The notes beneath the pieces are model-generated. The model worked only from the letters and a program-made list of their open reading frames with translations, ran no database searches and was not told where the DNA came from. From Alphaproteobacteria bacterium (GTDB lineage: Bacteria > Pseudomonadota > Alphaproteobacteria > UBA9219 > RGZA01), in contig JANRLI010000016.1 of the NCBI GenBank assembly GCA_033762625.1, forward strand, positions 77,660 through 141,659: a DNA stretch of 64,000 bases, given 5' to 3'. Of this stretch, positions 939-27,604 are shown one piece after another (the first letter of the stretch is position 1; every line of letters begins with the position of its first letter). A program made the translations under genes and the position numbers.

Positions 939-1086
939 CCCTGCCCCTGCCCCACACGAAAAACCCTTTAAATAGGCGTTTTTTTGCCTTGAAACTAATT
1001 TTGCCGTTTCTCCTGCCCGCACAAAAACGGTAAAAAATGCGCCATATCACTACGCTATTTTTTAAGATTTTTTGTAAAGGTTCACC

Positions 1087-2532
1087 ATGGCCAAAGCTAT
1101 TCGACGTGACAGCAAGCCCGAGCGCACCGCTATCGTTTACACCCATTGCGTTGATGTCTTATCCGCCATGCGATTTGGCAAGGGCAGCAATACCACTCGC
1201 CTGAGCGATGCGGATATTAAAAAAACCGCGCGGCAGATTTCCCGCGCCTTTGGTCATTTTCTGGGCGATAAAGCACTAACGCGCGAAAGCGAAGTGTACC
1301 AGTTCCAGCGCAAATACGATGCATTCATTGCCGGCCTTGAAAAACGCGGCCTGAATTTTTCTCCCGAAAAAATTGTACGCATCGCAGTGCTTGCGCCAAA
1401 TCTCATCACCGGCGATCCGGAAACCACGCTTGGCAATCTATTTGGCACCCGCGACAAAAAAACCGGCTTGCGCATCAAAGGACTTATCGAACGCATTCGT
1501 GATAACGGCATCACCCTTACGAATGAAGATCTGGAACGTATTCTGGTGCGCGCGCCGCAATGGGCTTATTTAAGTCCCGATACCGTCATTGCCAAATTAT
1601 TTGGCGGTAAAGACCGTGATGGCCATACGCATATCGGCGTTTTTCCTGCACTGGAAACACAGTTTGGAAAAACCAAACTGACCGAACGGCAAAAACACGA
1701 TATGCTGGTGCGTAACCCGCAGCTTGCCTACCAAACGGGGATGATTACTAACCTCTTTGGTAAACGCAATGCCAAGGGCAGACGCACCCGGCTTGGCCTT
1801 TATGACAAGCTGGCAGCATTGGGCGCAAATCTGTCACCACAGGAAAAAGTCAAACTGCTTGCCGATTTTCCGCAGCTTGGCAGCCAGCGCCCCGAAAGCA
1901 GCATCAACCGTTTTCTTCTTAAACGTCACTTGAAATTTATCTCCGGCGTGCGCGCCCGCGCGCAAGCTCCCGTCAATGGTCAGGACATGACCAACGGCGT
2001 TGGCTATTATCTTTTCGGAATTGTTGCGTGCGAATTAATGGGAAATACCAGCAACACAATTGGCAGCGTCAATACCTATGAAGGAACGCGCAACGGTATT
2101 CTGCGCAGCTTTGGCTATCTCACTCGTGCGGGGCTTGATGCTGCGGTTGCAAAACATCTGGGGCTTGATGCAAAAACTGCAAAACGCATCCGGAATGCTG
2201 CCGCGAATGACAATCGTGAAGACAGTGTAAAAAGCAGATACGCCCTGTCTAACCGCCAACGAAACCGTCTTCTGGATGGCTTTGTACGCGCCGAGCGGCA
2301 GATCTGCGAATACAGCCGCGCCAATATCCAGCACCAATTACGTCACGGCGAAGATGCGATTTACGGCGAAGATAGACCCCATGCGGCAAAAATTATTTTT
2401 GGCGCCAGATTAGTCAACCTCGCGCAAAGCGGCGAAGACAGCGCGGCCGCACAAAAAGCGCGCGAGGAGCTGTATTACCGCATGCACATTATGATGAATA
2501 CGCGCCGCCAAACCGCGCTGAATAACGGCTAA
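1087..2532 (+). CDS. Hypothetical protein with mTERF-like repeats (repeated ...NLFG.R......L...P.LAY.. units); eukaryote-like domain, candidate effector
   Basis: Three or more ~35 aa units of form ITGDPETTLGNLFGTRD / ILVRAPQWAYLSPDTVIAKLFGG / MLVRNPQLAYQTGMITNLFGKR resembling mTERF motif L..LG.s..i..ll...P.lL; weak RBS aaagg 7 nt upstream. Confidence 0.4.
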   Translation: MAKAIRRDSKPERTAIVYTHCVDVLSAMRFGKGSNTTRLSDADIKKTARQISRAFGHFLGDKALTRESEVYQFQRKYDAFIAGLEKRGLNFSPEKIVRIAVLAPNLITGDPETTLGNLFGTRDKKTGLRIKGLIERIRDNGITLTNEDLERILVRAPQWAYLSPDTVIAKLFGGKDRDGHTHIGVFPALETQFGKTKLTERQKHDMLVRNPQLAYQTGMITNLFGKRNAKGRRTRLGLYDKLAALGANLSPQEKVKLLADFPQLGSQRPESSINRFLLKRHLKFISGVRARAQAPVNGQDMTNGVGYYLFGIVACELMGNTSNTIGSVNTYEGTRNGILRSFGYLTRAGLDAAVAKHLGLDAKTAKRIRNAAANDNREDSVKSRYALSNRQRNRLLDGFVRAERQICEYSRANIQHQLRHGEDAIYGEDRPHAAKIIFGARLVNLAQSGEDSAAAQKAREELYYRMHIMMNTRRQTALNNG

Positions 2533-2543
2533 AAAAACAACCA

Positions 2544-3128
2544 TCACGGTTTATATAAATCGGGATAGGTCAAACGCAGTTTTGCCAGCTTTGGCAGATC
2601 ATGCATGATGATGTAAGGGCTCGTCATGTTCCGCGGCAGATAATTCTGATGATAGTCTTCTGCCGGATAAAACGCCTTTAACGATTCAACCTTCGTCACA
2701 ATCTTATCCGAATATCGCTTTGCTTTTGTCAGCTCGGCAATTTTATCCTTCACGGCCTTTTCCTGTTCGGGATTGCTGGTAAATACCTGTGACCGATATT
2801 GCGTGCCACGATCTGGCCCTTGGAAATTCAATTGCGTCGGGTCATGCGCCACATTGAAATACACATCCAGCAATTGGTTTAACGATACCACCTTGGGGTC
2901 ATAGGTAATTTCAACGCTTTCGGCGTGCCCTGTATTCCCATCACTGACCTGTTCATAATTCGCTGTCTCCGCGCTACCGCCCGCATAACCAGATACTGCT
3001 TTGGAAACGCCCTTCACATGTTCAAATACAGCTTCCACACCCCAGAAACAGCCACCCGCCACGACAAGTGTTTCGGCATGCGCTGGCACAGCGAGTAACA
3101 GCGAAAAAATCAATAAAAGTTTTTTCAT
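2544..3128 (-). CDS. msrA: Peptide methionine-S-sulfoxide reductase MsrA, Sec signal peptide (periplasmic copy)
   Basis: MKKLLLIFSLLLAVPAHA signal peptide followed by GGCFWGVEA active-site motif, EDYHQNY C-terminal motif. Confidence 0.85.
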   Translation of the reverse strand: MKKLLLIFSLLLAVPAHAETLVVAGGCFWGVEAVFEHVKGVSKAVSGYAGGSAETANYEQVSDGNTGHAESVEITYDPKVVSLNQLLDVYFNVAHDPTQLNFQGPDRGTQYRSQVFTSNPEQEKAVKDKIAELTKAKRYSDKIVTKVESLKAFYPAEDYHQNYLPRNMTSPYIIMHDLPKLAKLRLTYPDLYKP

Positions 3129-3129
3129 A

Positions 3130-3609
3130 TTATGCCTGTTTGCTGCTGGGTTTGAAGGTCAGCACCGCGCCATTGCTGCAATAGCGTAATCCCGTCGGCT
3201 TTGGCCCGTCATCAAACACATGGCCATGGTGTCCGCCGCAGCGCGCACAATGATATTCGGTGCGTTTCATGAACATGGAGTTGTCTTGCTTTGTTGCAAT
3301 ATGACGTTCTATGGCAAAATAAAAACTGGGCCAGCCCGTGCCGCTATCGAACTTGGTATTCGATTCAAACAGCGGGTAATCACAACCAACGCAGTGAAAT
3401 GTTCCTTCGCGGTGTTCATCCACCAACTTGCTGGTAAAGGGCGCTTCCGTGCCTTCTTCGCGCAAAATGTGGAATTGCTCGGGCGTCAGAATTTTTTTCC
3501 ATTCATCCTTTGTCTTGGTCACCTCAAACGCATCCCCCGCCAGCAGTTTACCTGAACCTAAAAGCCCGATTGCAATCACGCTGCCCACCAAAAATTCCCG
3601 TCGTTTCAT
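3130..3609 (-). CDS. msrB: Peptide methionine-R-sulfoxide reductase MsrB with twin-arginine (Tat) signal peptide (periplasmic copy)
   Basis: N-terminus MKRREFLVGSVIAIGLLGSG (RRxFL Tat motif); HCVGC / [16 protein letters not shown] zinc and catalytic motifs of SelR/MsrB; 1 nt gap to msrA downstream. Confidence 0.85.
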   Translation of the reverse strand: MKRREFLVGSVIAIGLLGSGKLLAGDAFEVTKTKDEWKKILTPEQFHILREEGTEAPFTSKLVDEHREGTFHCVGCDYPLFESNTKFDSGTGWPSFYFAIERHIATKQDNSMFMKRTEYHCARCGGHHGHVFDDGPKPTGLRYCSNGAVLTFKPSSKQA

Positions 3610-3610
3610 A

Positions 3611-4114
3611 TTAGCTTACCTTCCAGTTTGGCCTGATATAATGGCACGTATAACCATTGGGGTGCTGCATCAGATAATCCTGATGGTAATCCTCAGCTAC
3701 ATAAAACTTCGTTGCGGCGGTAACTTCGGTTACAATCAGCCCCGGAAATTTCTGCGATGCGTTAAGTTCGTTGATCAACTGGCTCGCGGTTTTGCGTTGT
3801 TCCTCGCTCACATAAAAAATCGCAGAACGATAGGACGGGCCCACATCATTACCCTGACGGTTTTTGGTGGTGGGGTCATGAATTTGAAAAAAGAATTCCA
3901 GAATTTTGCGGTATGAAATCACATCGCTGTCAAAGGTAATTTCAATGGCTTCCGCATGGCCGGTGTTTTTCGATGTCACATCCTTATATGTCGGGTTTTC
4001 AAATGTGCCGCCGGTATATCCGACATCGGTATTGGTCACGCCCGGAAGCTTGCGGATTAAATCTTCCATGCCCCAGAAACAACCGCCTGCCAAAATTGCA
4101 CGTTCAACCGCCAT
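3611..4114 (-). CDS. msrA: Peptide methionine-S-sulfoxide reductase MsrA, cytoplasmic copy (start moved to internal ATG at 4114 after AGGAG RBS)
   Basis: [19 protein letters not shown]... GCFWG motif directly after start; ORF-track start at 4207 lacks RBS, internal ATG has aggag 8 nt upstream. Confidence 0.85.
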
Positions 4115-4122
4115 ATCCACTC

Positions 4123-4614
4123 CTAAAACAATTGTGCATATTCGCCGTATCCTTCTTTTTCCAAATCTTCCTTTGGAATGAACCGCAGCGAAGCTGAATT
4201 GATGCAATACCGAAGACCGGTCCCCACACTTTCCGCCCGAGCGGTTGCGCCATCTGGCGCAGAGCGAATGGCGCCTATGGGCCCGTCATCAAAGACATGG
4301 CCTAAATGGCTGTCGCCGTGACGCGAACGCACTTCAACGCGCACCATGCCATGGCTGGCATCGCGTTTTTCAACAATGTGCTGTTCGTTCAATGGCCGTG
4401 TAAAACTGGGCCAGCCCGTGCCGCTATCAAATTTATCGGTTGAAGAAAATAACGGTTCACCCGAAACCACATCCACATAAATCCCGGCGCGCTTTTCATT
4501 CCAGAACGCATTGCGAAAGGGGGGTTCGGTTCCGCAGGCCTGCGTGACATAGCGCTGGAGTTCATCCAACTTGGCCAGATTGGCAGGGTTCTTGGTGTAG
4601 GATTTTGGGCTCAT
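4123..4614 (-). CDS. msrB: Peptide methionine-R-sulfoxide reductase MsrB, cytoplasmic copy; first gene of msrB-msrA-msrB-msrA operon
   Basis: CGTEPPF...SGTGWPSF...[15 protein letters not shown] MsrB motifs; no signal peptide. Confidence 0.85.
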
Positions 4615-4683
4615 GGCGCACTCTATTACGTTAAAATAACAGATGAATTAATATATAAGTCTGATAGGCTATTTATCAATTCA

Positions 4684-4709
4684 TTCGACGATAAAGGCCA
4701 AATGGTTAC
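4684..4709 (-). promoter_or_regulatory. ECF sigma-F-type promoter GTAACC-N16-CGAA reading on minus strand, 70 nt upstream of msrB start; overlaps the divergent sigF start codon
   Basis: Minus-strand read gtaacc-atttggcctttatcgt-cgaa; same motif and 16 nt spacing as three other sites in this island; matches published Caulobacter sigma-F motif as recalled. Confidence 0.6.
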
Positions 4710-5271
4710 CGAACTAAATAAATATGGCGAATTTGCCGAGTTGCTACGCCGTGCGAATGACGGTGACAAGGCCTGCTACCAACGCTTTCTTGAAGGGATT
4801 GCGCCATTATTGCGCCGCCAGATTGCCGCGCGCATTCCCGTTGCAGATGTGGAAGATGTATTGCAAGAGGTACTGATTTCAGTGCACAAAGCCCGCCATA
4901 CCTATGACGGGGAACGCCCGATTATGCCTTGGCTGGCTTCCATCACCCAGTTCCGGATGATTGATTATTTACGCAAACACTATATCGCCATGCGCCACCA
5001 AACCACCGATATAACGGAGGTAGAGGATATTCTGGCAGATGTAACCCAGACCCCCGCTTCGTCCGAATCCATAGATGAGCTATTGATTGACGTGCCCGAA
5101 AAGCAGAAACGAATTTTAACCCTGATGCATGTGGAAGGGTTTACGGCAAAGCAAGTTGGGCAAAAACTTAACATGTCTGAAACGGCTGTAAAAGTTGCCG
5201 CCCATCGCGCCATGAAGAAAATACGCATCCAAAAGATGCGCACTGAACAACGAAAAGTACAATCGCAATGA
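4702..5271 (+). CDS. sigF: ECF (group sigma-70 region2/region4) RNA polymerase sigma factor, SigF-like
   Basis: Region 2 (VLQEVLISVHKARHTYDGERPIMPWLASITQFRMIDYLRK) and region 4 HTH (LTLMHVEGFTAKQVGQKLNMSETAVKVAAHRAMKKIR); 4 nt overlap with downstream anti-sigma gene. Confidence 0.8.
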   Translation: MVTELNKYGEFAELLRRANDGDKACYQRFLEGIAPLLRRQIAARIPVADVEDVLQEVLISVHKARHTYDGERPIMPWLASITQFRMIDYLRKHYIAMRHQTTDITEVEDILADVTQTPASSESIDELLIDVPEKQKRILTLMHVEGFTAKQVGQKLNMSETAVKVAAHRAMKKIRIQKMRTEQRKVQSQ

Positions 5272-5927
5272 CCGGTAAAACTGACACAACCCTTAACCTT
5301 ATTGCTCAGCTCAGCGCGGCTGCCCCTGCACATAAGCGCGCCGTCAAACCGCGCCGCCTCGCCCTATACCTATTGGCAGTTTTTACGGTCTATGCGCTAG
5401 GCGCGCAGGCCATCACGGGTCTGCGCCCTGATGTGACGGCAAAGTTAACCGATATTTGGTTTTTGGCTGAAATCACCAGCCTGCTGTGCCTTGCCTTGGC
5501 TTCGGCAGCTGCGGGCATTATGCTCATGGCGCCCGATGCATTTCAAAAACCCACGCTGCTCAAACTGCCTTATATCGTATTTGCTGTAATTATGGGGTTG
5601 ATTATATCCCAATACACCATGGCAATTGATATCACGCATCCGGTGGTTGGTATCGAAACCCAAGGGCTTGAGTGCGCGCTATGCCTTGCCGGTCTTTCCG
5701 CTATTCCATCAGCACTTATGTTTGCTGTGATAAAACACGGCGCTACGGTTCATCCCTTTCAAGCGGGTGCGTTTTCAGTCTTTACCGCTGCGGGTATTGG
5801 CTGCCTTACCCTGCGCCTTGCCGAGCAAACCGATAACATGATGCATCTTGCGCTTTGGCATTATTTGCCGACATTGCTTTTTGCCATGCTGGGCGCATTC
5901 ATCGGCAAACTTGTCTTGAAATGGTAA
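5268..5927 (+). CDS. nrsF: Membrane anti-sigma factor, NrsF/DUF1109 family (negative regulator of sigma F), about 6 TM helices with loop cysteines
   Basis: ATGA start/stop overlap with ECF sigma gene; 219 aa polytopic membrane protein with several hydrophobic spans and Cys in loops, the size and architecture of Caulobacter NrsF. Confidence 0.6.
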   Translation: MTGKTDTTLNLIAQLSAAAPAHKRAVKPRRLALYLLAVFTVYALGAQAITGLRPDVTAKLTDIWFLAEITSLLCLALASAAAGIMLMAPDAFQKPTLLKLPYIVFAVIMGLIISQYTMAIDITHPVVGIETQGLECALCLAGLSAIPSALMFAVIKHGATVHPFQAGAFSVFTAAGIGCLTLRLAEQTDNMMHLALWHYLPTLLFAMLGAFIGKLVLKW

Positions 5928-5929
5928 TA

Positions 5930-5960
5930 AAAAAAGGGAGAGGCATTGCCTCTCCCTTTT
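5930..5960. terminator. Bidirectional rho-independent terminator between convergent nrsF and bufA1-like gene
   Basis: aaaaaaa-GGGAGAGGC-att-GCCTCTCCC-tttt: perfect 9 bp stem, A-run on one side and T-run on the other. Confidence 0.75.
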
Positions 5961-5980
5961 CACACGATATGACTTACTGC

Positions 5981-6238
5981 TTATTCTTTGGAAGCGCCAG
6001 CAATTTTATCGCACGCACCCTTTGGAAGATAAATCCACACATTCGGGTCAGCATCTTTTTTGGCTGAACCAGCGCAGCTATTTTTACCATCCTTCGATGC
6101 GCAATCATTCTTTCCGGCCTTAGCCACCCCATAGCATTTTTCGCGTTCAGGGGATTTACCGCCCATCTCTTCGGCATGGGACAGGTTTGCAGCCATCAAT
6201 CCGGCAAGGACAGCAGCAGCGACAAGGGTCTTTTTCAT
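5981..6238 (-). CDS. DUF2282-family (BufA1-type bufferin) secreted Cys-containing RiPP precursor; no maturase genes adjacent
   Basis: Signal peptide MKKTLVAAAVLAGLMAANLSHA then EKCYGVAKAGKNDCAS...NSCAGS...WIYLPKGACDKIAG, the DUF2282 signature with 4 Cys. Confidence 0.7.
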   Translation of the reverse strand: MKKTLVAAAVLAGLMAANLSHAEEMGGKSPEREKCYGVAKAGKNDCASKDGKNSCAGSAKKDADPNVWIYLPKGACDKIAGASKE

Positions 6239-6319
6239 GATTTACTCCATAAGGTTAGGCAATAGATGGTAAGGCGGGAAGCCCGAGGATAGCCCAAAAA
6301 ACTGGGCTTTGCTCACTCA

Positions 6320-6345
6320 TTCGCAACCTAATGCACTTTGGTTAC
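6320..6345 (-). promoter_or_regulatory. Sigma-F-type promoter GTAACC-N16-CGAA on minus strand, ~80 nt upstream of DUF2282 gene
   Basis: Minus-strand read gtaacc-aaagtgcattaggttg-cgaa. Confidence 0.6.
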
Positions 6346-6385
6346 ATATGGAACAATTTAATAACCGGGGACTCATTTCCTACTT

Positions 6386-6411
6386 GTAACCACTTTTCAA
6401 ATGGCTGCGAA
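6386..6411 (+). promoter_or_regulatory. Sigma-F-type promoter GTAACC-N16-CGAA, 70 nt upstream of the 104 aa Cys/His-rich peptide gene
   Basis: gtaacc-acttttcaaatggctg-cgaa on plus strand. Confidence 0.6.
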
Positions 6412-6481
6412 TAAGGTGATATGGCGTCTCAATGCCACACCACCTGTGGCATGATTTAACATTCCATCCGGAGAAACCCTT

Positions 6482-6796
6482 ATGAAGACTTCAAAAAAAC
6501 TTGCTGCTGCTGCGCTTGCTGGCGCAATGGCCGTTATGACCACTGCTGCATTTGCTGGTGATGATTTCCCATCCTTGTACCCACAAGGCTACAAAGGAAA
6601 TGGCTCTTCCTACTCGGCAGAAAAAGCTTCCTGCAAAGGCGCTGGTTCATGCAAGAGCGGTGCAGGTTGCAACGCAGAAAAATCATGCGCAGCTGCAAAG
6701 CCAAAGCATCACAAGTCACACAAGAAAGCAGCTCCTGCCGCAGCACCTGCGCCAGCAGCAGCGATGAAGCCAGCTGAAAAGCCAGCCAAGCACTAA
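6482..6796 (+). CDS. Secreted Cys-rich peptide (4 Cys in SCKGAGSCKSGAGCNAEKSC) with His/Lys-rich and Ala/Pro-rich C-terminal tail; 6Cys-bufferin-like variant, stand-alone
   Basis: Signal peptide MKTSKKLAAAALAGAMAVMTTAAFA; CKG..SCK..GC spacing like BUF_6Cys half-repeat; tail KPKHHKSHKKAAPAAAPAPAAAMKPAEKPAKH; own promoter and own terminator. Confidence 0.55.
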   Translation: MKTSKKLAAAALAGAMAVMTTAAFAGDDFPSLYPQGYKGNGSSYSAEKASCKGAGSCKSGAGCNAEKSCAAAKPKHHKSHKKAAPAAAPAPAAAMKPAEKPAKH

Positions 6797-6829
6797 TTCG
6801 ATACGTCTTAGGCTTGTTAACAATTGAAA

Positions 6830-6859
6830 GTGGAGGCAGCAATGCCTCCACTTTTTTTT
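6830..6859 (+). terminator. Rho-independent terminator after 104 aa peptide gene
   Basis: GTGGAGGCAGC-aa-TGCCTCCAC followed by tttttttt. Confidence 0.75.
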
Positions 6860-6873
6860 ATGATAAATGGCAT

Positions 6874-6899
6874 GTAACCATCCATTGCAACACTGCGAA
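6874..6899 (+). promoter_or_regulatory. Sigma-F-type promoter GTAACC-N16-CGAA, 64 nt upstream of 6-Cys precursor gene
   Basis: gtaacc-atccattgcaacactg-cgaa on plus strand. Confidence 0.6.
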
Positions 6900-6963
6900 T
6901 ACACAGACATGCCACGCGGATTATCTTGCATGCGCATTCAACACTTAACATCTGGAGAATATA

Positions 6964-7221
6964 ATGTCTGGTCATTCAAAGAAACTTGCTGTCGCTGCAC
7001 TTGCCGGCCTTCTCACCATGGGCTTTTCAGTCGCCCCAGGCCAAGCGCACGCAACCACTGACAATGCGGCAGCGTCAGATACCCAAATCGAAAAGCATGC
7101 CTGCAAGGGACAAAATTCCTGCAAAGGCAATGGCGGCTGCAAAACCGAACGTAACGCCTGCAAGGGACAAAATGCCTGCAAGGGACTTGGCGGCTGCGCT
7201 ACCGACGGCAGCAAGAAATAA
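6964..7221 (+). CDS. BUF_6Cys-type (BufA2-like) bufferin precursor peptide, signal peptide plus two CKGQN.CKG.GGC repeats
   Basis: MSGHSKKLAVAALAGLLTMGFSVAPGQAHA then ACKGQNSCKGNGGCKTERNACKGQNACKGLGGCATDG (6 Cys); RBS ggagaa upstream. Confidence 0.7.
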   Translation: MSGHSKKLAVAALAGLLTMGFSVAPGQAHATTDNAAASDTQIEKHACKGQNSCKGNGGCKTERNACKGQNACKGLGGCATDGSKK

Positions 7222-7275
7222 TAATTCGATCTAGGTGACCCATTCATCCGCATAATACATGATGAAGGGCACAAA

Positions 7276-7304
7276 CCGGCGGTGGCAACGCCGCCGGTTT
7301 TTTT
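7276..7304 (+). terminator. Intra-operon hairpin/attenuator between precursor gene and maturase gene
   Basis: CCGGCGG-tggcaac-GCCGCCGG followed by ttttttt, then maturase ATG at 7318. Confidence 0.6.
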
Positions 7305-7317
7305 ATATGGTAGCGGC

Positions 7318-9000
7318 ATGTCCAACCCGTCTTCATCACCTGTTCCGTATCTTGGTTTTGGTCTTGGCCTGCGCATTCCGCATTACGCGCATATTCTGGA
7401 AACGCGCCCTGCGGTGGACTGGTTTGAAATCATCTCCGAAAATTTTATGGATACGGATGGCAGGCCAAAACGCAATCTGGCCAAATTCCGCACGCTTTAC
7501 CCCATCGTCATGCACGGCGTTGCCATGTCGATTGGCACTGCCGATCCGCTCAATTCGGAATATATGCGCAAGCTAAAAGCGCTGAAGAATGAACTGAACC
7601 CTGCATGGATATCCGACCATTTATGCTGGACGGGCATTGCGCACAAAACCACCCACGACTTGTTACCCGTCCCCTATACCGAGGAAGCGCTCAAACACAT
7701 CACGCAGCGCATCAAGGACGTACAGGATTTTCTGGAATGTCCAATTGCGCTGGAAAATCCATCCACTTACCTTGAATTCAAATCATCGCAAATGCCGGAG
7801 GCCGAATTTATCGCGCGCATGGCAACGGATTCCGGCTGCCATTTGCTGCTTGATGTGAACAATGTCTATGTAACCTGCTATAACCACCGCCTTGATGCGA
7901 AAGCATATATCGACGCACTACCCCTAAACCATGTGGCGCAGATCCATTTATCGGGCCACAGCAATATGGGCACCCATATTATCGATACGCATGACGACCA
8001 TGTGGTTGACGATGTATGGGCGCTTTACAAATACGTGATGCACAAGGCGGCGCGCCCCATCAACACCATGATTGAATGGGACGACAATATCCCCGAATTC
8101 GGCGTTGTGTTTGCCGAACTTGAAAAAGCAAAAGCCGCTGCCAAGGATGCGCAGAATTACGCCCCGCTGCCGGATTTGGCTGCGCCGCATGCCGCCTACC
8201 GCGCCAATCATGTGACGGGACTGGCACATTCCCAAACGCACATGCAGGACGCCATATTAAACGGCGCCGATGATGAACCAGCCGCGTGGATTAAAGAAAA
8301 AGAAAACTTCAGCGCCAGCGACCAGCTGGATGTCTATATCAATGGCTACCGCTACCGCCTTTATAACGTCACATCAGAAGATTATCCGGTTCTAAAATAC
8401 GCATTAGGCACAGATACCTTTGATACAATGCTTATGGATTGCATCAACAAAATCCCCGCAACCCATTTTAACATTGCGCGCTATTCCATTCATGTTCCGG
8501 AATTTCTGGCAAGCCACGAAACCGCAACACCCTTTGCACTTGAAATTGCGCAGCTGGAATCAGCAATCGCGCAATTAATGGATGCGCCCGAAACACCCCC
8601 CCTCACGCCCCAGCATTTAAGCCATCTCACCCCCGAAGCATTGATGGAAAGCACCCTTGCGCCGCGCAAAGCCTTGCAGCTTTTTGCCTTCAGCTATCCC
8701 GTTAATGATTATTTTCAGGCCGTCAAAAATGATCAGTCTCCACCGCGCCCTGAAATGCAGAACAGCTTTCTTGCGGTGTACCGCCACGAGGATGATGTCT
8801 GGCGCTTGCCACTGGAAGAGCACGAATATCATTTGCTTCGCAACATCTTTAGCGGGTTGACGATTGGCGATGCGCTGGAAAAAACCCAGAACGACATGGC
8901 CCTTGATGATGAAGCATTGCCTTTGCAACTAACCCACTGGTTTGCGCGGTGGATGCGTAACGGTTTGCTCGCATCTTACGAAGATAACCATATCCACTAA
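7318..9000 (+). CDS. Fused MNIO (DUF692, MbnB/BufB-like multinuclear non-heme iron oxidase) - DUF2063 (BufC/MbnC-like partner) protein; start reassigned to ATG after the hairpin (ORF-track start 7282 lies inside the terminator stem)
   Basis: N-half GFGLGLRIPHYAHI...DWFEIISENFMD...HGVAMSIGTADPL...ISDHLCW...LENPSTYLEF...DVNNVYV = DUF692 TIM-barrel motifs; C-half ...DVYINGYRYRLYNV... DUF2063 signature (R.DVYRNN-like); single 561 aa ORF. Confidence 0.75.
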   Translation: MSNPSSSPVPYLGFGLGLRIPHYAHILETRPAVDWFEIISENFMDTDGRPKRNLAKFRTLYPIVMHGVAMSIGTADPLNSEYMRKLKALKNELNPAWISDHLCWTGIAHKTTHDLLPVPYTEEALKHITQRIKDVQDFLECPIALENPSTYLEFKSSQMPEAEFIARMATDSGCHLLLDVNNVYVTCYNHRLDAKAYIDALPLNHVAQIHLSGHSNMGTHIIDTHDDHVVDDVWALYKYVMHKAARPINTMIEWDDNIPEFGVVFAELEKAKAAAKDAQNYAPLPDLAAPHAAYRANHVTGLAHSQTHMQDAILNGADDEPAAWIKEKENFSASDQLDVYINGYRYRLYNVTSEDYPVLKYALGTDTFDTMLMDCINKIPATHFNIARYSIHVPEFLASHETATPFALEIAQLESAIAQLMDAPETPPLTPQHLSHLTPEALMESTLAPRKALQLFAFSYPVNDYFQAVKNDQSPPRPEMQNSFLAVYRHEDDVWRLPLEEHEYHLLRNIFSGLTIGDALEKTQNDMALDDEALPLQLTHWFARWMRNGLLASYEDNHIH

Positions 9001-10376: not shown

Positions 10377-12758
10377 TTAGAACGTAAACTTCAAACCTGC
10401 TGCAAAGGTTTGGTCAAAGCGGTTACCAATCGGCGCGCCAACATCATAGGTTGCAAACGCGCTGAATGTTTCATCCAGCGTCACGTCAAAGCCCATGCCA
10501 AGCGTAAGGGTGTGGCGTGCAGCGGAAACACCCTGCAAGCTTGCAGCCACCCCGATAATGGTTGCCTGCGTATTATTTGATGCGTCAAACACATCATAGC
10601 TGTATTTCACGCGCGCATTGGGTATGAATGCATATTCGCCAATCTTTTTAGCAGGTGCGGTGAAATTCAATCCCGTATAAAGGCGCAGCAAATTGTTCGC
10701 ACGCGAAGCAACGCTGATATTCGAAATGCCAGCTCCGCTTTCGCTAAATGCATCTTCATAGACATAGGCGTAATTGGCGCCTACACGCGGGGTAATACCA
10801 AATCCGTTCAGCTTCATACGCTTTGATACATGCAATCCTGTGGAAAGTTCATGCGCGGCATGATTGCTATTGGCGGCAATGGCTGGCGCAATATAACGCG
10901 CATTATCAATATCGTGATGCGCATAACCCATCTGGCCATCGAGCGCGATATCATCCCACACCTTGCTGCCATACAAAGCAAAACGCACAGTGTTGGCTTC
11001 ACCTTCGCTTCTGGTCGCGGCATATCCCGTCAGGCCCGTATGCTCATATCCGCCTGCTGCACCAAAGCGAAGACCTTTTTCAATTTTCCTATCCACACCA
11101 AACATAAATCCGCCGGTTTGCGTTTCATATCCTGCGGCGGAACTATTACTGGATACTGAACCCAAATTGCCTATTGCCTTGAACCAGCCGTTATTGCGTT
11201 TCATTACTGCTGGCAATGCCTTAGCCAGTGCGTTCATGCCTTGAATATTTTCAGAATGCGTTACAGTCGTATCACGCAAAGATGTAAAGGTGAGATCACT
11301 GCCCGCATCGCTGCTTGAGCCTGTATCACCCAAATGGTCAAACATCACATCGCTTGCGCGCGCACCTGAATCAAATGATGTACTGGTGGTCGTAGTCAGA
11401 CTGCTGGTAGCAGGAAGCTTGCTGGCATCTGGAACCGTTAGACTAATTGTAACATCGGTTGGGTTGTACATCACATTGCCAAACGTAAAACCCGTCGGCG
11501 CACTCGTTACCACGCTTGTAAATTCACCTGTAATGCTTCCTGCTTTGATGACTGTGTATTTAGATTGTGGATTATCGCTATTTAGTAAATTTAAAATCAA
11601 CCGTCCACCAAGTATTGCATTCCCCATAACCGTTAGCGCAGGCGCTGCATCGGTAAGACCGACTATCAATATAGATTGCGGCGGTGTGGGCGGTGGCGTT
11701 GGTTGGTAAATAGAGATATTTAATGTGAGTGATTTTACCGTTTGATGAAATCCCCCAAGATCAAGTGTTGAGTCTTTAGTAACATACACATCCGAGTTGG
11801 GGCTTAAGGTATTTTCTGCGCCCGCCAGTAATGCTCCGTTACCATACAGTATTTGATTAGCTTGCGGGTCAGCAGCGTAGTTTCCCGTAGCAATATATGT
11901 TGGACCGGAATAGCTGTTAGCTCCATGAAGTGTTGTTGTGGTTCCAAGAATATTTACATTAACGGCACCGCCAATCTGATTAATGGTTCCACCTACTGAA
12001 GTAATAATCCACGGACCATTGAGAATGCCATTTTGTACGGTACCGCCAAACAAACGTACAGGACCCGAGCTGTGCGTAGTGCCGCCATAATCAACAATAC
12101 CGCCACTATAAACTACCGAGCTGTAAGAAATCCAAGACGCCAGATTAGCAAGATTAAGCGTGCCGCCATTAACAGTTGCCTCGCCAGTAACTACACCCAC
12201 CAAATTGGTTGTGCCCGAGTTTACATTTAAGTTGAGGCCATAATTGGTAGAGATGTTTTCAATTGTACCGCCTGTTGAATTAACTTGCGGAAAAAAATAA
12301 ATAGAGTACCCAAACGGATCTACAAGCAATCCATTTCGAAGTGTGCCGCCATTAAGATGGATTAGATTAATTGCTTCGCTGCGCCCATCAAAATCAAGCG
12401 TTGCACCTGTACTAATAGTGGTGACTGACGTTCGACTAAATACAAAATTAGCACCTAATTTCAGTATACCATGATTCACATTCGTATCACCCGTATATGT
12501 ATTGGCACCTGATAGCGTCAGGGCACCAGAACCCGTCTTGGTAATTGCTGTACCACTTCCTGTAATCGCACCACTTTGTGTCGCTTCATCGAAATTGTTG
12601 ACCTGTAATGTCTCCGTAGTTGTAATCGGGGTTGCTCTGTTTTGTCCGTTAGTATAAACGATGGTCGCCGATGCAGGTACAGCGATGCCGCATAATAATG
12701 CGGCGCTTAATACCAATAATATGGAAGAACGATGGAACGATGTGCGCATGAAAACCAA
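10377..12758 (-). CDS. Autotransporter (type Va) adhesin-like protein with signal peptide, beta-helical passenger and C-terminal translocator barrel
   Basis: Signal peptide; Gly/Thr/Asn-rich passenger; C-terminal barrel region with alternating hydrophobic residues ending AAGLKFTF (terminal Phe). Confidence 0.75.
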   Translation of the reverse strand: MVFMRTSFHRSSILLVLSAALLCGIAVPASATIVYTNGQNRATPITTTETLQVNNFDEATQSGAITGSGTAITKTGSGALTLSGANTYTGDTNVNHGILKLGANFVFSRTSVTTISTGATLDFDGRSEAINLIHLNGGTLRNGLLVDPFGYSIYFFPQVNSTGGTIENISTNYGLNLNVNSGTTNLVGVVTGEATVNGGTLNLANLASWISYSSVVYSGGIVDYGGTTHSSGPVRLFGGTVQNGILNGPWIITSVGGTINQIGGAVNVNILGTTTTLHGANSYSGPTYIATGNYAADPQANQILYGNGALLAGAENTLSPNSDVYVTKDSTLDLGGFHQTVKSLTLNISIYQPTPPPTPPQSILIVGLTDAAPALTVMGNAILGGRLILNLLNSDNPQSKYTVIKAGSITGEFTSVVTSAPTGFTFGNVMYNPTDVTISLTVPDASKLPATSSLTTTTSTSFDSGARASDVMFDHLGDTGSSSDAGSDLTFTSLRDTTVTHSENIQGMNALAKALPAVMKRNNGWFKAIGNLGSVSSNSSAAGYETQTGGFMFGVDRKIEKGLRFGAAGGYEHTGLTGYAATRSEGEANTVRFALYGSKVWDDIALDGQMGYAHHDIDNARYIAPAIAANSNHAAHELSTGLHVSKRMKLNGFGITPRVGANYAYVYEDAFSESGAGISNISVASRANNLLRLYTGLNFTAPAKKIGEYAFIPNARVKYSYDVFDASNNTQATIIGVAASLQGVSAARHTLTLGMGFDVTLDETFSAFATYDVGAPIGNRFDQTFAAGLKFTF

Positions 12759-12834
12759 ATGAACAAGCTGGTTTCAGCAGCTTACCCAAAGATACGCTTT
12801 TCATGCAATCCTATTAAAATGTCACTTTTTAATG

Positions 12835-13254
12835 CTATTTCAAAAGCGTCTGAATTTTCTTGAAGCGTTCCATTTGAACCGTCTGGCCAAGATTGCGAGC
12901 TTTTTCCTTATCGCCTTCTTGCGCGGCGGGGATCATCTCGCCATCACGGGTCTGCACAAACTCGGCCCAGACTGACTTGAATTGCAGCAGTCTCTGCTTG
13001 GTTTCCTCTGGTGTTTTATCATCGTTGATCATGGTATCGGTACGCATATCCACTTCAATGGTTGATGCGCTAATCTCGCTGAGCAGCGTTGAACGGACAT
13101 TTTCGTCATCGGTTGACAAAAAGCCTGATACTTTGGCCCGCGAATTTTGAACCAGTTCAAGAATATCCGCCGTGGTCCCTTCCGCCAGCGCCGCAAAAGG
13201 GCTGGCAACGCACAACAGAAAACCGGCAAAAGCCAAAGCAAATTTGTTTTTCAT
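12835..13254 (-). CDS. Small periplasmic hypothetical protein (signal peptide), between the two autotransporter genes
   Basis: MKNKFALAFAGFLLCVASPFAALA signal peptide; charged helical remainder; no recognisable family. Confidence 0.45.
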   Translation of the reverse strand: MKNKFALAFAGFLLCVASPFAALAEGTTADILELVQNSRAKVSGFLSTDDENVRSTLLSEISASTIEVDMRTDTMINDDKTPEETKQRLLQFKSVWAEFVQTRDGEMIPAAQEGDKEKARNLGQTVQMERFKKIQTLLK

Positions 13255-13265
13255 GTATTCTCCTA

Positions 13266-16200
13266 TTACCAGCGATACTTCATACCGCCGAACACACCGT
13301 GGGTGGTTTCGTTGTTGCGGAAGCGGCCACTATATTTCCCGAATACCGAGAAATCGTTATTAAGTCTTAGCTGCATGCCTGCGCCGGCCTGCAATGCGCT
13401 TGGCTCGATATTGGTGCCATCCACCTTGAAGCGTGCGGTTGTGCCATCAAAGGTTTGTGTCGCATTCGCTTCGGGGCGGTATGCATCATACAGATAGGCT
13501 GCCGTCAGCTCGGGAATAAGCATCGAACCATCTGCCCTGTCGATATCAAAGCGCTTGGCCACATGCACTTGAAGGGTATTGCGCAACGCATGGGTGCTTT
13601 CGCTATCCACCGCAAGGTTGGCAGCATTCGCGCCCGTTTCAACAAACGCATCCTGATTATTGTAAAGGTAGGATACGGTATCAAAGATGCCGAGTTGAAC
13701 ATCGCCATCATCCGCCTTATAGCCGAGCGTACCCGATGCGCTGAAGGTCTGGCCTTCGGGTGAACCCTTGGCAGTTCCGGTGAATGTGCCAACGCGGATA
13801 TCGCGTTTGGTATCGCCCTTGTCAAAGCCGATACCTACCGCGCCGCCAACATAAATATTGCTATCCAGATTCTTCTGGCCATAAACGCCAAGCTGATAGC
13901 TGTTCAAGGATGCAGTATTGTTGTTCTGCTTCAGCTCCAATTCGTTATTGCCATATCCGAAGCCGATACGCAGCAGCGTGTCGCGTTCAGGCTTGAATTC
14001 CAGACCGACCATACCGCCAACCTGTGTTCCCTTAATGTCGCTGACATTGCTGTTTCCGGTCAGGGTTGCGAACTTGCCATACGCACAACCCCACGCCGCA
14101 ACATTCTGGCGCATGAAATTACGTTTGAGCTGAACCTGTTTGCGCTCGCCCTGATTAACCCGTTGGCTATCGCGCGGCAAGATAAGCGGCATTTGCTGAT
14201 AGCGCTGTTCCTTGCGTTCATAATATGGCGGTGGTTCTTGCTGCACAGGCGGCATGGATGCGTATTGTTGCGGCTGCACCTGTGGTACCACTTGTGGCAC
14301 AACTTGCGGCTGCATTTGTGGTTGCTGCATCACTTGCTGCGGCACGTATTGCTGCTGCATATATTGTTGTGGCTGCTGCGGCACGTATTGTGGCTGTACC
14401 TGTGGTGCCACTTGCGGCACCACTTGCGCCTGCTGTGTCATGACCTGTACCGGTTGCTGCGGCACAGGAATGTTGGTTTGCGAATACAAATTCTGACGCG
14501 GTGCGCCGCCATAAGGCGTGTTCATATTCGATTGCGCATAATGCTGGTAGGACGGCATCATCTGCGGGGTAGGCATTGGGCCAGGCATATAACCCGATGA
14601 TTGAACCACCATGTAATTTACAGCCGGCGGCGCAGCTTGCGCGACCATGCCTTGCGGCGCATAGATTTGTGAATATAATCCCAGCGGTCTATATCCGCTC
14701 TGAACCTGTGGCATGGCTTGCATTACGGGTTGCGGCGCAGGGATATAGCCATTTGGCATTCCATTATTGATGCCTGAACGTGCATGCATCAGTGCCTTGT
14801 AATTATCCGGCGCATAATCCATCGCAGTCAAGCCAATGGGCCGTGCCAGCATACCGCGGCGGGTTTCATAAGCAATCGGTGTATAGCGCGAATTGGGCAT
14901 AACCGTGCGCGTGGGTTGCTGCAATTGCGGCGCTACGTAATCGCTACCATCGGCGGTATCGTAATCGTAATTATACATCGTATCGCAATTACCGCTGCCG
15001 GGATTGGACAAGATTTCATCAAAGGTGAAATGGTTTTCACGCCATCCCTGCCCGATATCGGCATTCACCTGACCGGATAATGTTTCAAGCGCAGCCGCTT
15101 GACCCGTTGGCCCAACAGCACTTAATGCGTTTAACAAGGTATCCATTGAACTGCCATTCGCGGTTGTTTGCTGAATACCATCCAGCGCGCGGCCCGTTGC
15201 GGCCTGATTTTTGGTGGCGCCGGGCGCATTACCAAATAATTCAGCCTGCACAATTTTCATCTGGGTGGCGGTTGGGCTGTACAATGTTTGCAAGGCAAGC
15301 AGCGGGTTCGATGAAGCGGCAATCTCCGCATCATTTGACGCATTTACAATATTATCCGCGCCAATCGTCGCGCCGGATGATGTTGTGGTAAAGCGGCCCG
15401 TGCCGCTACCTGCTGGGCTTGAAATAATCGTATAGGTCGTGCCGCGCACATAGCGTGATGACGGCGTAAGCGGCTTGTAATGGATTTTTCCATCCAGCGA
15501 TGCAGGTGATCCCGTCACAATCAACTGGTCATGCACCGTATCGCTAAACTCCACTTCAAACGTACCGCCTGAATTTTGCGTAAATCCGGCAACGGTCAAT
15601 GTGCCGGGGCTATCGCCGGGGGCAACAGTACCGTTATTGACAATCTGGCCGGTGAACGTCCCAATACCCTTTAAGCCCGCGCCGGAATTTACAGTCACGG
15701 TGCTGCTGGCAACGCTGCCATCATTTTGCAAAGTGGATCCGCTGATAATGGTCGTTGTACCCGTATAGGTATTATTGCCGGTAACGCGCCATGTGCCGTT
15801 ACCTGTTACGATCAAGCCGCCGCCGGTTGGTGATCCATCGCCCACGCTGCCGGTAAAGGTGTTGGTACCGTTTTGTGTAATCGTACCGCCATCCAGCAAG
15901 ATGCTGCCCGACCCGCTTAAATTCGTAAGCGTCTGGCTGGTGGAGTTAACATCCAACACGCCATTAATCTCAACATCCGAACTGGTTGCAATCGCATCAT
16001 TCACAGTAAGGCTAAGGGTTGAACCCGAACCAATCGTCGTTGTGCCGGTATAGGTATTGACGCCCGATAACGTCCATGTGCCAGTACCGGTGGTTGCCAC
16101 ATTACCTGCGCCGGAAATCACGCCGCTAAAGGTGCCGGTACCGTTTTCGGTCAACGTATGGCCACTATCCGTCACAATACTTCCCGAACCTGAAAGGTTA

Positions 16201-25751: not shown

Positions 25752-27437
25752 ATGTTCTTCAGGAATTCTGCCTTTTTGCTGCTATGTGCACTTTGCCTGT
25801 GCATGCCGCTTGGCGCGGTGGCACAGGTAGCGATACCCAATTCCGCCGATATCAGCCGCATCAAACCCGAAGAACATATTCCGTCACTATCCCACACGAA
25901 TGACGGTAAAATATCCATCCCGTCCGGCAAGGGCGCAGCGCCAGTCCCGGATGAAGCAAAACGCGTGAAGCTCACTCTGAAATCCTTGAAGATTATCGGT
26001 GCAACCGTTTATGCTCCAGCCGAACTTGATGCGCTGTATGCAACCAACATCGGTAAGGACATCACCTTGGATGCGGTTTATAAAACCGCATCCGCCATTA
26101 CCGAAAAATACCGTAATGACGGCTATTTCCTGAGCAGGGCATTCGTTCCAGAACAGGAAATCGAAGATGGCAACGTCACCATTCGCGTCGTCGAAGGTTA
26201 TGTCGGCGCAGTGGACGGCACCAGCACATTTGCGGATTCAGCAATCGTCAATGATGCGATTGAACGCCTAACGCATAAACGCCCGTTGACCTCTGATGAT
26301 ATCGAGCGATTTTTATTATTGCTGGATGATCTGCCGGGGTATGAATTTGGCGGTACATTATCACCGCTTGAAGATGCGCCCGATGGCGCGGTCAAGCTGA
26401 CGCTCACCGTCAAAGAGACCCAAGGCACCGGTTCCATCAATTTCGATAATCACTCATCGCGCTTTCTGGGGCCGAATGAAATTTCGGCATCCTATTCCAA
26501 AAGTTTTATCCCGTTTCAGCAAACAACCATCTCTGCATTGTCGGATGTTGACCGCACCAAATTGCGTTATGGCACGATTGATCATTCCATCGCGCTTAGC
26601 ACGGATATGAAGCTGAATATTGCCGGCGGCGTTACGCAAGCCATGCCCGGTTACTCGCTGGAAAGCTCGGAAATCGACAGTATTTCAATCTTTGCCAGCA
26701 TCGCGCTCAACTATCAATTGCTGCGCACTCGTCAGCAAAATCTCGGCCTAAAGGCATGCGTTGATGGACGCGATGTCAAAAGCGATATCCTTGGCGCGCC
26801 GCTGACACGAGATTATATCCGCGCATTCCGCGCCAGCGCAAATTACGATCTCGCCGATGGCTGGCATGGCTTCAATAACGCAACCATCACACTCGCCCAC
26901 GGTGTGGACTGGCTGGGCTCCAGCCATCCCAATGATCTCAACCTATCGCGCATCGGCGCATTGCCGGATTTCACCAAGGGCGAATTATCACTCTCGCGCC
27001 TGCAAAGCATTACGCAAGACTGGTCGGTTCTTATCGCTGGCGAAGGTCAATGGGCATCGGGCGTTTTATATTCATCTGAACAATTCGGATATGGCGGACA
27101 AAATTTTGGCCGTGCGTATGATTCATCCGACATCACGGGCGATCACGGCATCAAAGGTTCTGTTGAAATGCGTTACGGCGGATGGACAGGAGAACGCATG
27201 GTCAATCTGCAGCCTTATGTGTTTTACGATATCGGAAAAGTGTGGAACGAGGCGGTCGGCCAACCGTCGAATATTTCTGCATCGACAGCGGGCATTGGGC
27301 TTCGCTTCAATACGCAATGGAAACAATCGGGGAACCTGGGGGTTGCATTCCCGCTCGACCGTGATATTACCACCCCCATTTACGGGTCGGGCGAGCGCGG
27401 CCCGCGCTTCATCCTGCAAATAAGCCAACAATTCTAA
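25752..27437 (+). CDS. Two-partner secretion outer membrane transporter TpsB (ShlB/FhaC/HecB family)
   Basis: Signal peptide; POTRA-like region with YFLSRAFVPEQEIEDGNVTIRVVEGYVG; 561 aa; C-terminal barrel ending FILQISQQF (terminal Phe). Confidence 0.8.
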   Translation: MFFRNSAFLLLCALCLCMPLGAVAQVAIPNSADISRIKPEEHIPSLSHTNDGKISIPSGKGAAPVPDEAKRVKLTLKSLKIIGATVYAPAELDALYATNIGKDITLDAVYKTASAITEKYRNDGYFLSRAFVPEQEIEDGNVTIRVVEGYVGAVDGTSTFADSAIVNDAIERLTHKRPLTSDDIERFLLLLDDLPGYEFGGTLSPLEDAPDGAVKLTLTVKETQGTGSINFDNHSSRFLGPNEISASYSKSFIPFQQTTISALSDVDRTKLRYGTIDHSIALSTDMKLNIAGGVTQAMPGYSLESSEIDSISIFASIALNYQLLRTRQQNLGLKACVDGRDVKSDILGAPLTRDYIRAFRASANYDLADGWHGFNNATITLAHGVDWLGSSHPNDLNLSRIGALPDFTKGELSLSRLQSITQDWSVLIAGEGQWASGVLYSSEQFGYGGQNFGRAYDSSDITGDHGIKGSVEMRYGGWTGERMVNLQPYVFYDIGKVWNEAVGQPSNISASTAGIGLRFNTQWKQSGNLGVAFPLDRDITTPIYGSGERGPRFILQISQQF

Positions 27438-27604
27438 AGCCTTATATAAAGGCGACGGTGCACGTGAATAGTGTTACCAAAAATTAATCAATAAAAATAA
27501 CGACTTATACATTTTTTAATGGCTTTTGACGCAAATTATACGCGTATAGCCCGTATATAGAGTATGCGCTTTAAAAAAAAGGCGCATACGAAACACGTTC
27601 AGCG

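Follow-up and report, generated by a model that had tools for sequence, protein, structure and literature searches.

A probable mTERF-type repeat protein with predicted beta-hairpin inserts, encoded by an alphaproteobacterial genome

The gene of interest lies at positions 1087–2532 (plus strand) of a 64,000-nucleotide stretch of contig JANRLI010000016.1, from the Alphaproteobacteria bacterium assembly GCA_033762625.1 (positions 77,660–141,659; hereafter, "the window"). It is a complete, ATG-initiated open reading frame (ORF) of 481 codons, with an AAGG ribosome-binding site ~8 nt 5' of the start, and it encodes a strongly basic protein whose charge is spread across all regions. The original prediction, made from the sequence alone, described an mTERF-like repeat protein without a signal peptide, and suggested that it might be an effector of a host-associated bacterium. 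The peptide strings quoted in that prediction are all found in the translation, and we agree on the signal peptide: no hydrophobic signal-like stretch is seen at the N-terminus (MAKAIRRDSKPERTAIVYTH...), by direct reading of the sequence, without a predictor. NCBI holds an identical protein, [quoted passage not shown], from an alphaproteobacterial metagenome-assembled genome (MAG). Two orthologues were found (84% identity), and no paralogue was found within the window. The features of the locus are listed below; helix, hairpin and fold descriptions draw on alignments and on AlphaFold2 (AF2) models, the confidence of which is given as the predicted local distance difference test (pLDDT).

939..1086, plus strand: conserved intergenic region of 148 nt, 79% and 70% identical to the two orthologous loci
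1087..2532, plus strand: complete ORF, 481 aa, pI 10.16, net charge +31, no signal peptide
1198..1329, plus strand: N-terminal cap (N-cap), residues ~38–81, two helices ending "ESEVYQFQRK" (alignment; the region is covered by the BLASTP match to P0005, a metagenomic relative introduced below)
1330..1488, plus strand: repeat 1, residues 82–134, predicted mTERF-type three-helix core plus hairpin (alignment, AF2)
1444..1479, plus strand: predicted beta-hairpin insert 1, residues 120–131, GTRDKKTGLRIK (AF2)
1489..1650, plus strand: repeat 2, residues 135–188, predicted mTERF-type core plus hairpin (alignment, AF2)
1603..1638, plus strand: predicted beta-hairpin insert 2, residues 173–184, GGKDRDGHTHIG (AF2)
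1651..1803, plus strand: repeat 3, residues 189–239, predicted core plus hairpin (alignment, AF2)
1759..1794, plus strand: predicted beta-hairpin insert 3, residues 225–236, GKRNAKGRRTRL (AF2)
1804..1956, plus strand: repeat 4, residues 240–290, predicted core without a hairpin, like the fourth unit of P0005 (alignment, AF2)
1957..2529, plus strand: predicted all-helical C-terminal region, residues 291–481, no assigned fold (AF2 pLDDT <50 over most of it)

The ORF is real and under strong purifying selection. Comparison with the two orthologues by the Nei-Gojobori method (dS 0.8–1.1) gave ratios of nonsynonymous to synonymous substitution rates (dN/dS) of 0.10–0.16 for the gene overall, with low values in all three regions (0.11–0.21 in the C-terminal region). 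At the DNA level, the gene shares 82% and 79% identity with the two orthologous loci, values that the neighbouring msr genes do not exceed. Exactly two loci were found among GTDB species-representative genomes, titled "uncultured Rhodospirillales bacterium" and "Alphaproteobacteria bacterium". In all three MAGs, the gene is flanked by a family 4 (GT4) glycosyltransferase gene and a convergent msrA-msrB-msrA-msrB block. A comparison of GC content with the neighbours, proposed earlier as a check, gives native values: the gene's GC (0.518, against 0.509 for the window) and its GC at third codon positions (GC3, 0.533) are within the range of the window's other genes. On the strength of the low dN/dS, the native GC and GC3, and the conserved synteny, the gene is native and constrained rather than a recent import.

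The protein contains four co-linear repeats, anchored by prolines P104, P157, P211 and P262, which are invariant in all units and orthologues; the flanking hydrophobic positions are conserved. Repeat significance was evaluated by comparing Smith-Waterman scores between units with those of 2000 shuffles. The observed score was reached by 0 of the 2000 shuffles for each of three unit pairs (R1-R2, z=10.3; R2-R3, z=9.7; R1-R4, z=7.0), while the remaining pairs gave z=2.2–2.9. The existence of repeated units is thus borne out, with a revised length: rather than ~35 aa, the measured period is 52–54 aa, within which an mTERF-type core occupies 36–39 aa (l..l...G..Ls.e....ilvr.PqLay.sPdTvi..LF). Units 1–3 are extended by a 12–15-aa "LFG-x-[RK]D-x-x-G-x-x-x-x-G" segment (more permissively, after the LF, "G-x-[KR]-[DN]-x-x-G-x-x-x-x-G"), the predicted beta-hairpin. 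Hairpin 1 carries a net charge of +4 over a 14-aa segment (FGTRDKKTGLRIKG, residues 119–132), and is the most variable hairpin among the orthologues; hairpin 3 carries +6 over 14 aa (FGKRNAKGRRTRLG, residues 224–237). Between orthologues the repeat units are ~93% identical, yet within the protein they are only 15–31% identical to one another, a pattern that fits a fixed, asymmetric target of which each non-equivalent unit would read a different part. The C-terminal region is lineage-specific and has no match in Pfam, NCBIfam or PDB sequences.

Structure prediction places the repeats in the mTERF fold class. The full-length AF2 model has a pLDDT of 57 overall and is confident over the repeats; a model of residues 71–288 (pLDDT 85.4; predicted TM-score 0.79) consists of four helix triplets, of which triplets 1–3 are each followed by a hairpin. 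When the latter model was compared with the PDB using Foldseek, ranks 1–16 were all mTERF proteins. The best match is MTERF3 (3m66; E 2.3e-3, probability 1.00, query-normalised TM-score 0.52, root-mean-square deviation 4.4 Å over 216 columns), followed by the Tetrahymena mitoribosomal protein mS93 (6z1p_BY). The other top-16 matches include several MTERF1–DNA complexes, which score almost as well, and MTERF4. The next match below them is a designed toroid, with a probability of 0.30. The ranking is unchanged with the full-length model, and the structural match is exclusive to the mTERF family.

A second line of evidence comes from a chain of sequence matches to prokaryotic proteins. When 1.84 billion cluster representatives were searched exhaustively with phmmer, only four proteins were recovered—the orthologue cluster, P0004, P0005 and P0006—and no eukaryotic protein. 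P0006, a beta-solenoid of 1700 aa whose E of 4e-6 adds up 8 stretches, was discarded as the sum of a short motif ("FLGDK…"). P0005 matches in a single stretch (E 2e-9, 53 bits), and a pairwise BLASTP comparison with the 481-aa protein (9e-19) covers the N-cap and two hairpin repeats. P0005 is encoded by a 1.7-kb Logan contig (SRR28148174) with a frameshift near positions 951–966; its ORFs, at 97–1616, jointly encode ~507 aa. In the frameshift-repaired version, P5m, the repeats run on into the downstream ORF. Over 261 residues, P5m aligns co-linearly with the 481-aa protein, with the "NLFG + hairpin" arrangement after units 1–3 and none after unit 4.

P5m, in turn, matches a prokaryotic family with a repeat period of 36–40 aa (E down to 5e-45, computed with a database size of 1.84e9; single domains of up to 50 bits). 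One member, P0004, matches the Pfam mTERF profile PF02536 at 3.3e-21 (75.9 bits; cutoff 23.1). A search seeded with P0004 returned 54 prokaryotic clusters, most with precomputed PF02536 matches and many fused to Sigma70_r4, XRE, excisionase or HTH_8 domains; two of these relatives come from named organisms (a Pacearchaeota archaeon and Micavibrio sp.), and the two family members whose surroundings were examined lie in ordinary chromosomal contexts. Another direct match of the 481-aa protein, to P0033, reaches 53 bits summed over stretches. When repeat units were compared by hhalign, units of the query family matched 195 independent units with P 3.7e-5, or 3.6e-9 once the P0005 units were added. 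Repeat 2 (LIERIRDNGITLTNEDLERILVRAPQWAYLSPDTV) is the unit closest to the 39-aa prokaryotic units.

As a side observation, the P0004 relatives amount to a sizeable, uncharacterised prokaryotic family with (i) an N-terminal helix-turn-helix (HTH) domain (Sigma70_r4, XRE or excisionase), (ii) 4–10 strictly tandem, PF02536-positive repeats of 36–40 aa, and (iii) a conserved C-terminal cap (C-cap). It includes low-GC contigs (29–35% GC) in addition to the two named organisms.

The 481-aa protein and this family (P0004, P0042, P0054) share a repeat core, G-L-T/S-x-x-x-x-[hydrophobic]-x-x-x-[hydrophobic]-K/R-x-P-x-L-[FWY]-x-x-[SD]-P-[DE]-T-I, a tandem layout, and a location in prokaryotic chromosomes. 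They also share an N-cap signature before the first unit, S-x-[FLV]-[WYF]-x-F-x-x-K, which reads ESEVYQFQRK in the query, GSSLYEFYKK in P5m, HSGFWDFRGK in P0054 and DSSFWNFRSK in P0042; P0043 and P0039 align here as well. The query differs in having four units with a 52–54-aa period that results from the hairpin inserts, in having no HTH domain, in lying below Pfam detection where the family is mostly PF02536-positive, and in its C-terminal 190 residues, which replace or expand the short C-cap. The family C-cap (…L-x-L-R…, L-L-R-A-L-I-x-A-G-x-I) is clear in P5m and other members; the C-terminal region of the query aligns with it only loosely (GILRSFG, RLLDGFVRAE). An "xLFG" hairpin insert is found in 0 of 53 relatives of P0004, all of which have the 36–40-aa period, and a BLASTP alignment of the query with P0004 places a 12-aa gap exactly at hairpin 1. 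P0005, by comparison, has an architecture identical to that of the query (N-cap, four units, "NLFG + hairpin" after units 1–3) but is 28% identical to it, carries ~105 extra N-terminal residues, has hairpins that are less basic (DGxxEVxGxxRKG), and retains at its C-terminus the family C-cap (LLRALMHGGLI).

Other searches for hairpin-type genes and relatives were negative. A unit-profile search of a 5.8-billion-protein database, from which 67 candidates were collected, gave no matches. Scans of JGI metagenomes with sequence patterns, among them a degenerate DNA pattern for P-x-L-x3-D-P-x-T-x3-N-L-F-G, revealed no further hairpin-type genes, and a scan of IMG/VR gave five chance matches, none encoding a relative. 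A sub-threshold Pfam match to DRE2_N (E 0.16) was rejected as noise.

The mTERF part of the original prediction is therefore supported by two independent lines, the predicted fold with its Foldseek matches and the sequence chain through P0005 to a PF02536-positive family; a direct match to PF02536, which had been proposed as a test, is the part that did not materialize. The best explanation of these results is that the protein comes from a sparse radiation of mTERF-like tandem-repeat proteins in prokaryotes, and not from the eukaryotic organellar clade.

Comparison with the characterised systems adds detail. Eukaryotic mTERFs are basic nucleic-acid binders, nuclear-encoded and organelle-targeted, with 5–9 interspersed motifs of ~30 aa and no beta-hairpins. 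They (PF02536; MTERF1, MTERF3, MTERF4 and mS93) supply the only significant structural matches to the query, and share with it three-helix motifs with a conserved proline. The query, however, shows only 10–14% aligned identity to them, falls below the Pfam threshold, and is a bacterial chromosomal gene in synteny with bacterial genes rather than a nuclear gene for an organelle-targeted product. TALE (transcription activator-like effector) repeats and mTERF-type repeats are both superhelical, DNA-reading repeat proteins. When our unit profile was searched against PDB sequences, mS93 (E 5.3e-4) was the only match not inflated by repeats; the TALE repeats Hax3/dHax3 (E 8e-6) were rejected as a sum over 12 repeats, each with an i-Evalue >1000 and covering ~10 of 39 positions. 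What the profile picks up is "GLTPEQVVAI" at every Hax3/dHax3 repeat start. This "G-L-T-P-E/Q-Q-V-V-A-I"-like start matches unit-profile positions 9–19, while the full 34-aa TALE repeat is unmatched and no TALE structure is among the Foldseek matches. We treat the likeness as a shared short sequence motif, not as membership; it may be a convergent short motif or reflect a very remote relationship.

Among prokaryotic proteins of this kind, only pTERF1 and pTERF2 (Hu et al., NAR 2024) have been characterised. The pTERFs have 3–11 units and resemble MTERF1 in AF2 models. Specific double-stranded DNA motifs are bound by pTERF1 and pTERF2 at nanomolar affinity; pTERF1 (MBQ3414883.1) binds ACTNNNAGTC with a Kd of 1.9 nM (PMC11417379). 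Like the query, pTERFs are prokaryote-encoded and built from tandem three-helix mTERF-like repeats. Most come from Bacillota MAGs; their period is 35 aa, and both the conserved proline and the hydrophobic heptads are reported to be missing (PMC11417379). Compared by description only, the query differs in keeping the proline and hydrophobic positions, and in having hairpins, which are undescribed for pTERFs. Set against prokaryotic mTERF-like proteins generally, the query is different in its hairpins, its small, fixed number of units, its lack of an HTH domain and its lineage-specific C-terminus.

We propose that the protein is a native, cytoplasmic, nucleic-acid-binding solenoid of the mTERF superfamily, and probably a DNA-binding regulator or roadblock; we put the probability of this reading at roughly 0.6. 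To our knowledge, all characterised proteins of the mTERF fold bind nucleic acids (MTERF1–4), and the pI of 10.16 and net charge of +31 point indirectly to such binding here. By analogy with solved mTERF structures, the N-cap and the four mTERF-type repeats would stack into a curved solenoid that could bind a specific double-stranded DNA site along its length. The Lys/Arg-rich hairpins of repeats 1–3 might add groove or backbone contacts, and the bound protein would regulate transcription or serve as a roadblock. A DNA-binding regulatory role is suggested by the precedents of MTERF1 and the characterised pTERF1 and pTERF2, and by the HTH fusions that are common among the relatives.

A number of results weigh against this proposal. 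Pfam PF02536 gives no match to the 481-aa protein at E≤10 (gathering threshold 23.1 bits), and a match is still absent after in-silico deletion of the three hairpins; by Pfam's own sequence criterion, then, the protein is not an mTERF-family member. It has no match in NCBIfam (or in PADLOC and PHROGs, searched alongside), and phmmer finds none among PDB sequences. The direct match to P0004 (2.3e-10) is summed over 7 weak stretches and carries little weight alone; summed-repeat E-values can be spurious, as those of P0006 (4e-6) and the TALE chains (8e-6) illustrate. The hidden Markov model built from the 195 independent prokaryotic units gives the query no more than 6.3 bits, so that the query is a distant family member, and the bridge to that family, P0005, is a single frameshifted 1.7-kb metagenomic contig. 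On the structural side, the AF2 alignment comprised only three sequences, and the Foldseek E-values are modest (2e-3 to 0.3 in the top 16) with TM-scores of ~0.5. As for function, the query contains no recognisable HTH, and because MTERF3, MTERF4 and mS93 have ribosomes or RNA as their targets, RNA competes seriously with DNA as the probable target.

That last point leads to the possibility that the protein is an RNA-binding or ribosome-associated factor, contacting rRNA or structured RNA in ribosome biogenesis or RNA maturation. MTERF3 and mS93 are the first and second Foldseek matches, MTERF4 pre-ribosome complexes also rank high, and mS93 is the one PDB sequence match of the unit profile that repeats do not inflate; a highly basic protein without an HTH, as conserved as the neighbouring housekeeping genes, would suit such a role. 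The MTERF1–DNA complexes score almost as well, however, the relatives carry DNA-type HTH domains, and the characterised prokaryotic homologues bind double-stranded DNA (PMC11417379). Furthermore, no rRNA-modification or ribosome gene is adjacent, and confinement to one small clade is odd for a ribosome-biogenesis factor. Overall, we regard an RNA or ribosomal role as somewhat unlikely. A protein-protein interaction scaffold, in which the alpha-solenoid would make no nucleic-acid contact, is less credible again, and indeed very improbable: helical solenoids are generic binding platforms, MTERF4 works via its protein partner NSUN4 (PDB 4fp9 is among the Foldseek matches), and the C-terminal 190 residues are uncharacterised, but K/R-rich hairpins and a net charge of +31, spread across all parts of the protein, are what is typically seen in a polyanion binder; nucleic-acid binding is common to every characterised superfamily member, and the relatives pair such repeats with HTH domains.

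The effector reading of the original prediction, recast as a secreted eukaryote mimic that would disturb the nucleic acids of host mitochondria or plastids, does not fit the evidence well. In its favour, the mTERF proteins of the literature are overwhelmingly organellar (PMC12977773), type III/IV-style export would be compatible with the missing signal peptide, the phyletic distribution of the family is patchy, and the two named relatives come from cell-dependent organisms. Yet Micavibrio and Pacearchaeota live on prokaryotes, which have no organelles, and all detectable relatives of the protein are prokaryotic, with no eukaryotic protein in the exhaustive search. Native composition, strong purifying selection (dN/dS 0.10–0.16) and a position between the GT4 glycosyltransferase and msrA/msrB genes that is stable in three MAGs argue in the same direction. 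Type III, IV and VI secretion genes were not found in the 64-kb window, where secretion is of type V only (two autotransporters and a two-partner secretion pair), a type that needs signal peptides. The window also encodes PAS histidine kinases, a sigma-54 activator, histidine, haem and polyamine biosynthesis, malic enzyme and hslV; its biosynthesis, PAS kinase and sigma-54 activator genes indicate a metabolically complete bacterium and not a reduced symbiont. An effector is accordingly unlikely, even more so than a scaffold, with the secretion-gene evidence being that of the 64-kb window.

A more specific form of the native-factor proposal is that the protein is an alphaproteobacterial mTERF-type factor in which the basic beta-hairpins serve as extra nucleic-acid readers. 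We advance this combination tentatively, and consider it distinctly unlikely as a whole, though less so than the scaffold.

The 148 nt upstream of the gene (939–1086) are themselves unusually conserved, although substitutions at synonymous sites are close to saturation among the three genomes: other intergenic regions of at least 50 nt show 18–62% identity, against 79% and 70% here. The region contains (i) a terminator-like hairpin at ~959–983, with compensatory changes, and (ii) an A-run/T-run inverted repeat at ~1021–1075, directly before the ribosome-binding site, which could be an operator or a leader hairpin. Rfam gave nothing credible upstream (939–1086) or within the gene, and no SigF-type promoter was seen before the gene on inspection by eye only.

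Several other features of the window deserve mention. Directly downstream of the gene lies a stress island (2544–9000; 9452–16367 in the orthologous locus L001), which comprises the minus-strand tandem msrA-msrB-msrA-msrB genes, an extracytoplasmic function (ECF) sigma factor with an NrsF-type anti-sigma factor, a BufA1 bufferin precursor, and two small Cys-rich secreted ORFs (6482–6796 and 6964–7221); the orthologous locus continues with an MbnB/HvfC-type fusion and then DoxX. In the genome of locus L006, the sigF-nrsF stretch and the ORF at 6964–7221 are unaligned (identity 0.00), which suggests that they are missing at that position. The ORF at 44670–45935, which the original prediction coupled to the mTERF-like gene as "NLS-tailed" (bearing a nuclear localization signal), encodes 421 aa with no Pfam match and a Lys/Pro-rich basic tail (…KAKRPKPAQKPKPKQGRRNET).

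The type V systems are located at 10377–18884 and 25752–34735. The autotransporters measure 793 and 1872 aa and have PATR repeats, and the two-partner secretion pair consists of a ShlB/FhaC-type transporter and a 2376-aa TpsA with MBG domains. Inside the TpsA gene, GC rises to 61% in the 1-kb bin 32001–33000. In the his cluster, a 556-aa ORF (58138–59808) joins a class I/II aminotransferase (HisC-like) to an imidazoleglycerol-phosphate dehydratase (HisB-like), an uncommon fusion. Finally, a 1139-aa ORF (37733–41152) has a partial, weak match to PEP-carboxylase (profile positions 377–590 of 919), and the adjoining 746-aa ORF (35283–37523) has no Pfam family.

The usual account of mTERF proteins is that eukaryotes invented them to control organelle genomes. 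The description "almost exclusively eukaryotic" in the original prediction reflects the literature, in which a 2026 survey still lists mTERF as absent from bacteria (PMC12977773), but it is outdated: prokaryotic mTERF-like "pTERF" proteins were described in 2024, in the one such paper (PMC11417379), and the family around P0004 holds at least 54 prokaryotic clusters. Taken together, the results show that mTERF-type tandem repeats are spread thinly over bacteria and archaea, often fused to HTH domains, and that one alphaproteobacterial clade conserves, as a chromosomal gene, a form that bears predicted hairpins and lacks an HTH. The host-manipulation story is not supported. The protein adds a structurally distinct candidate to the few natural repeat scaffolds that read nucleic-acid sequence; if the hairpins do act as readers, specificity would be built on an mTERF solenoid in a manner not seen before, and the protein might offer a new programmable scaffold for binding DNA or RNA. 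The finding also bears on the origin of organellar mTERFs. If the protein is indeed a native mTERF-type factor, it would speak for an mTERF fold that is older than eukaryotes and was present in the bacterial class ancestral to mitochondria, and such a pre-eukaryotic origin would contradict the prevailing view of mTERF as a host invention.

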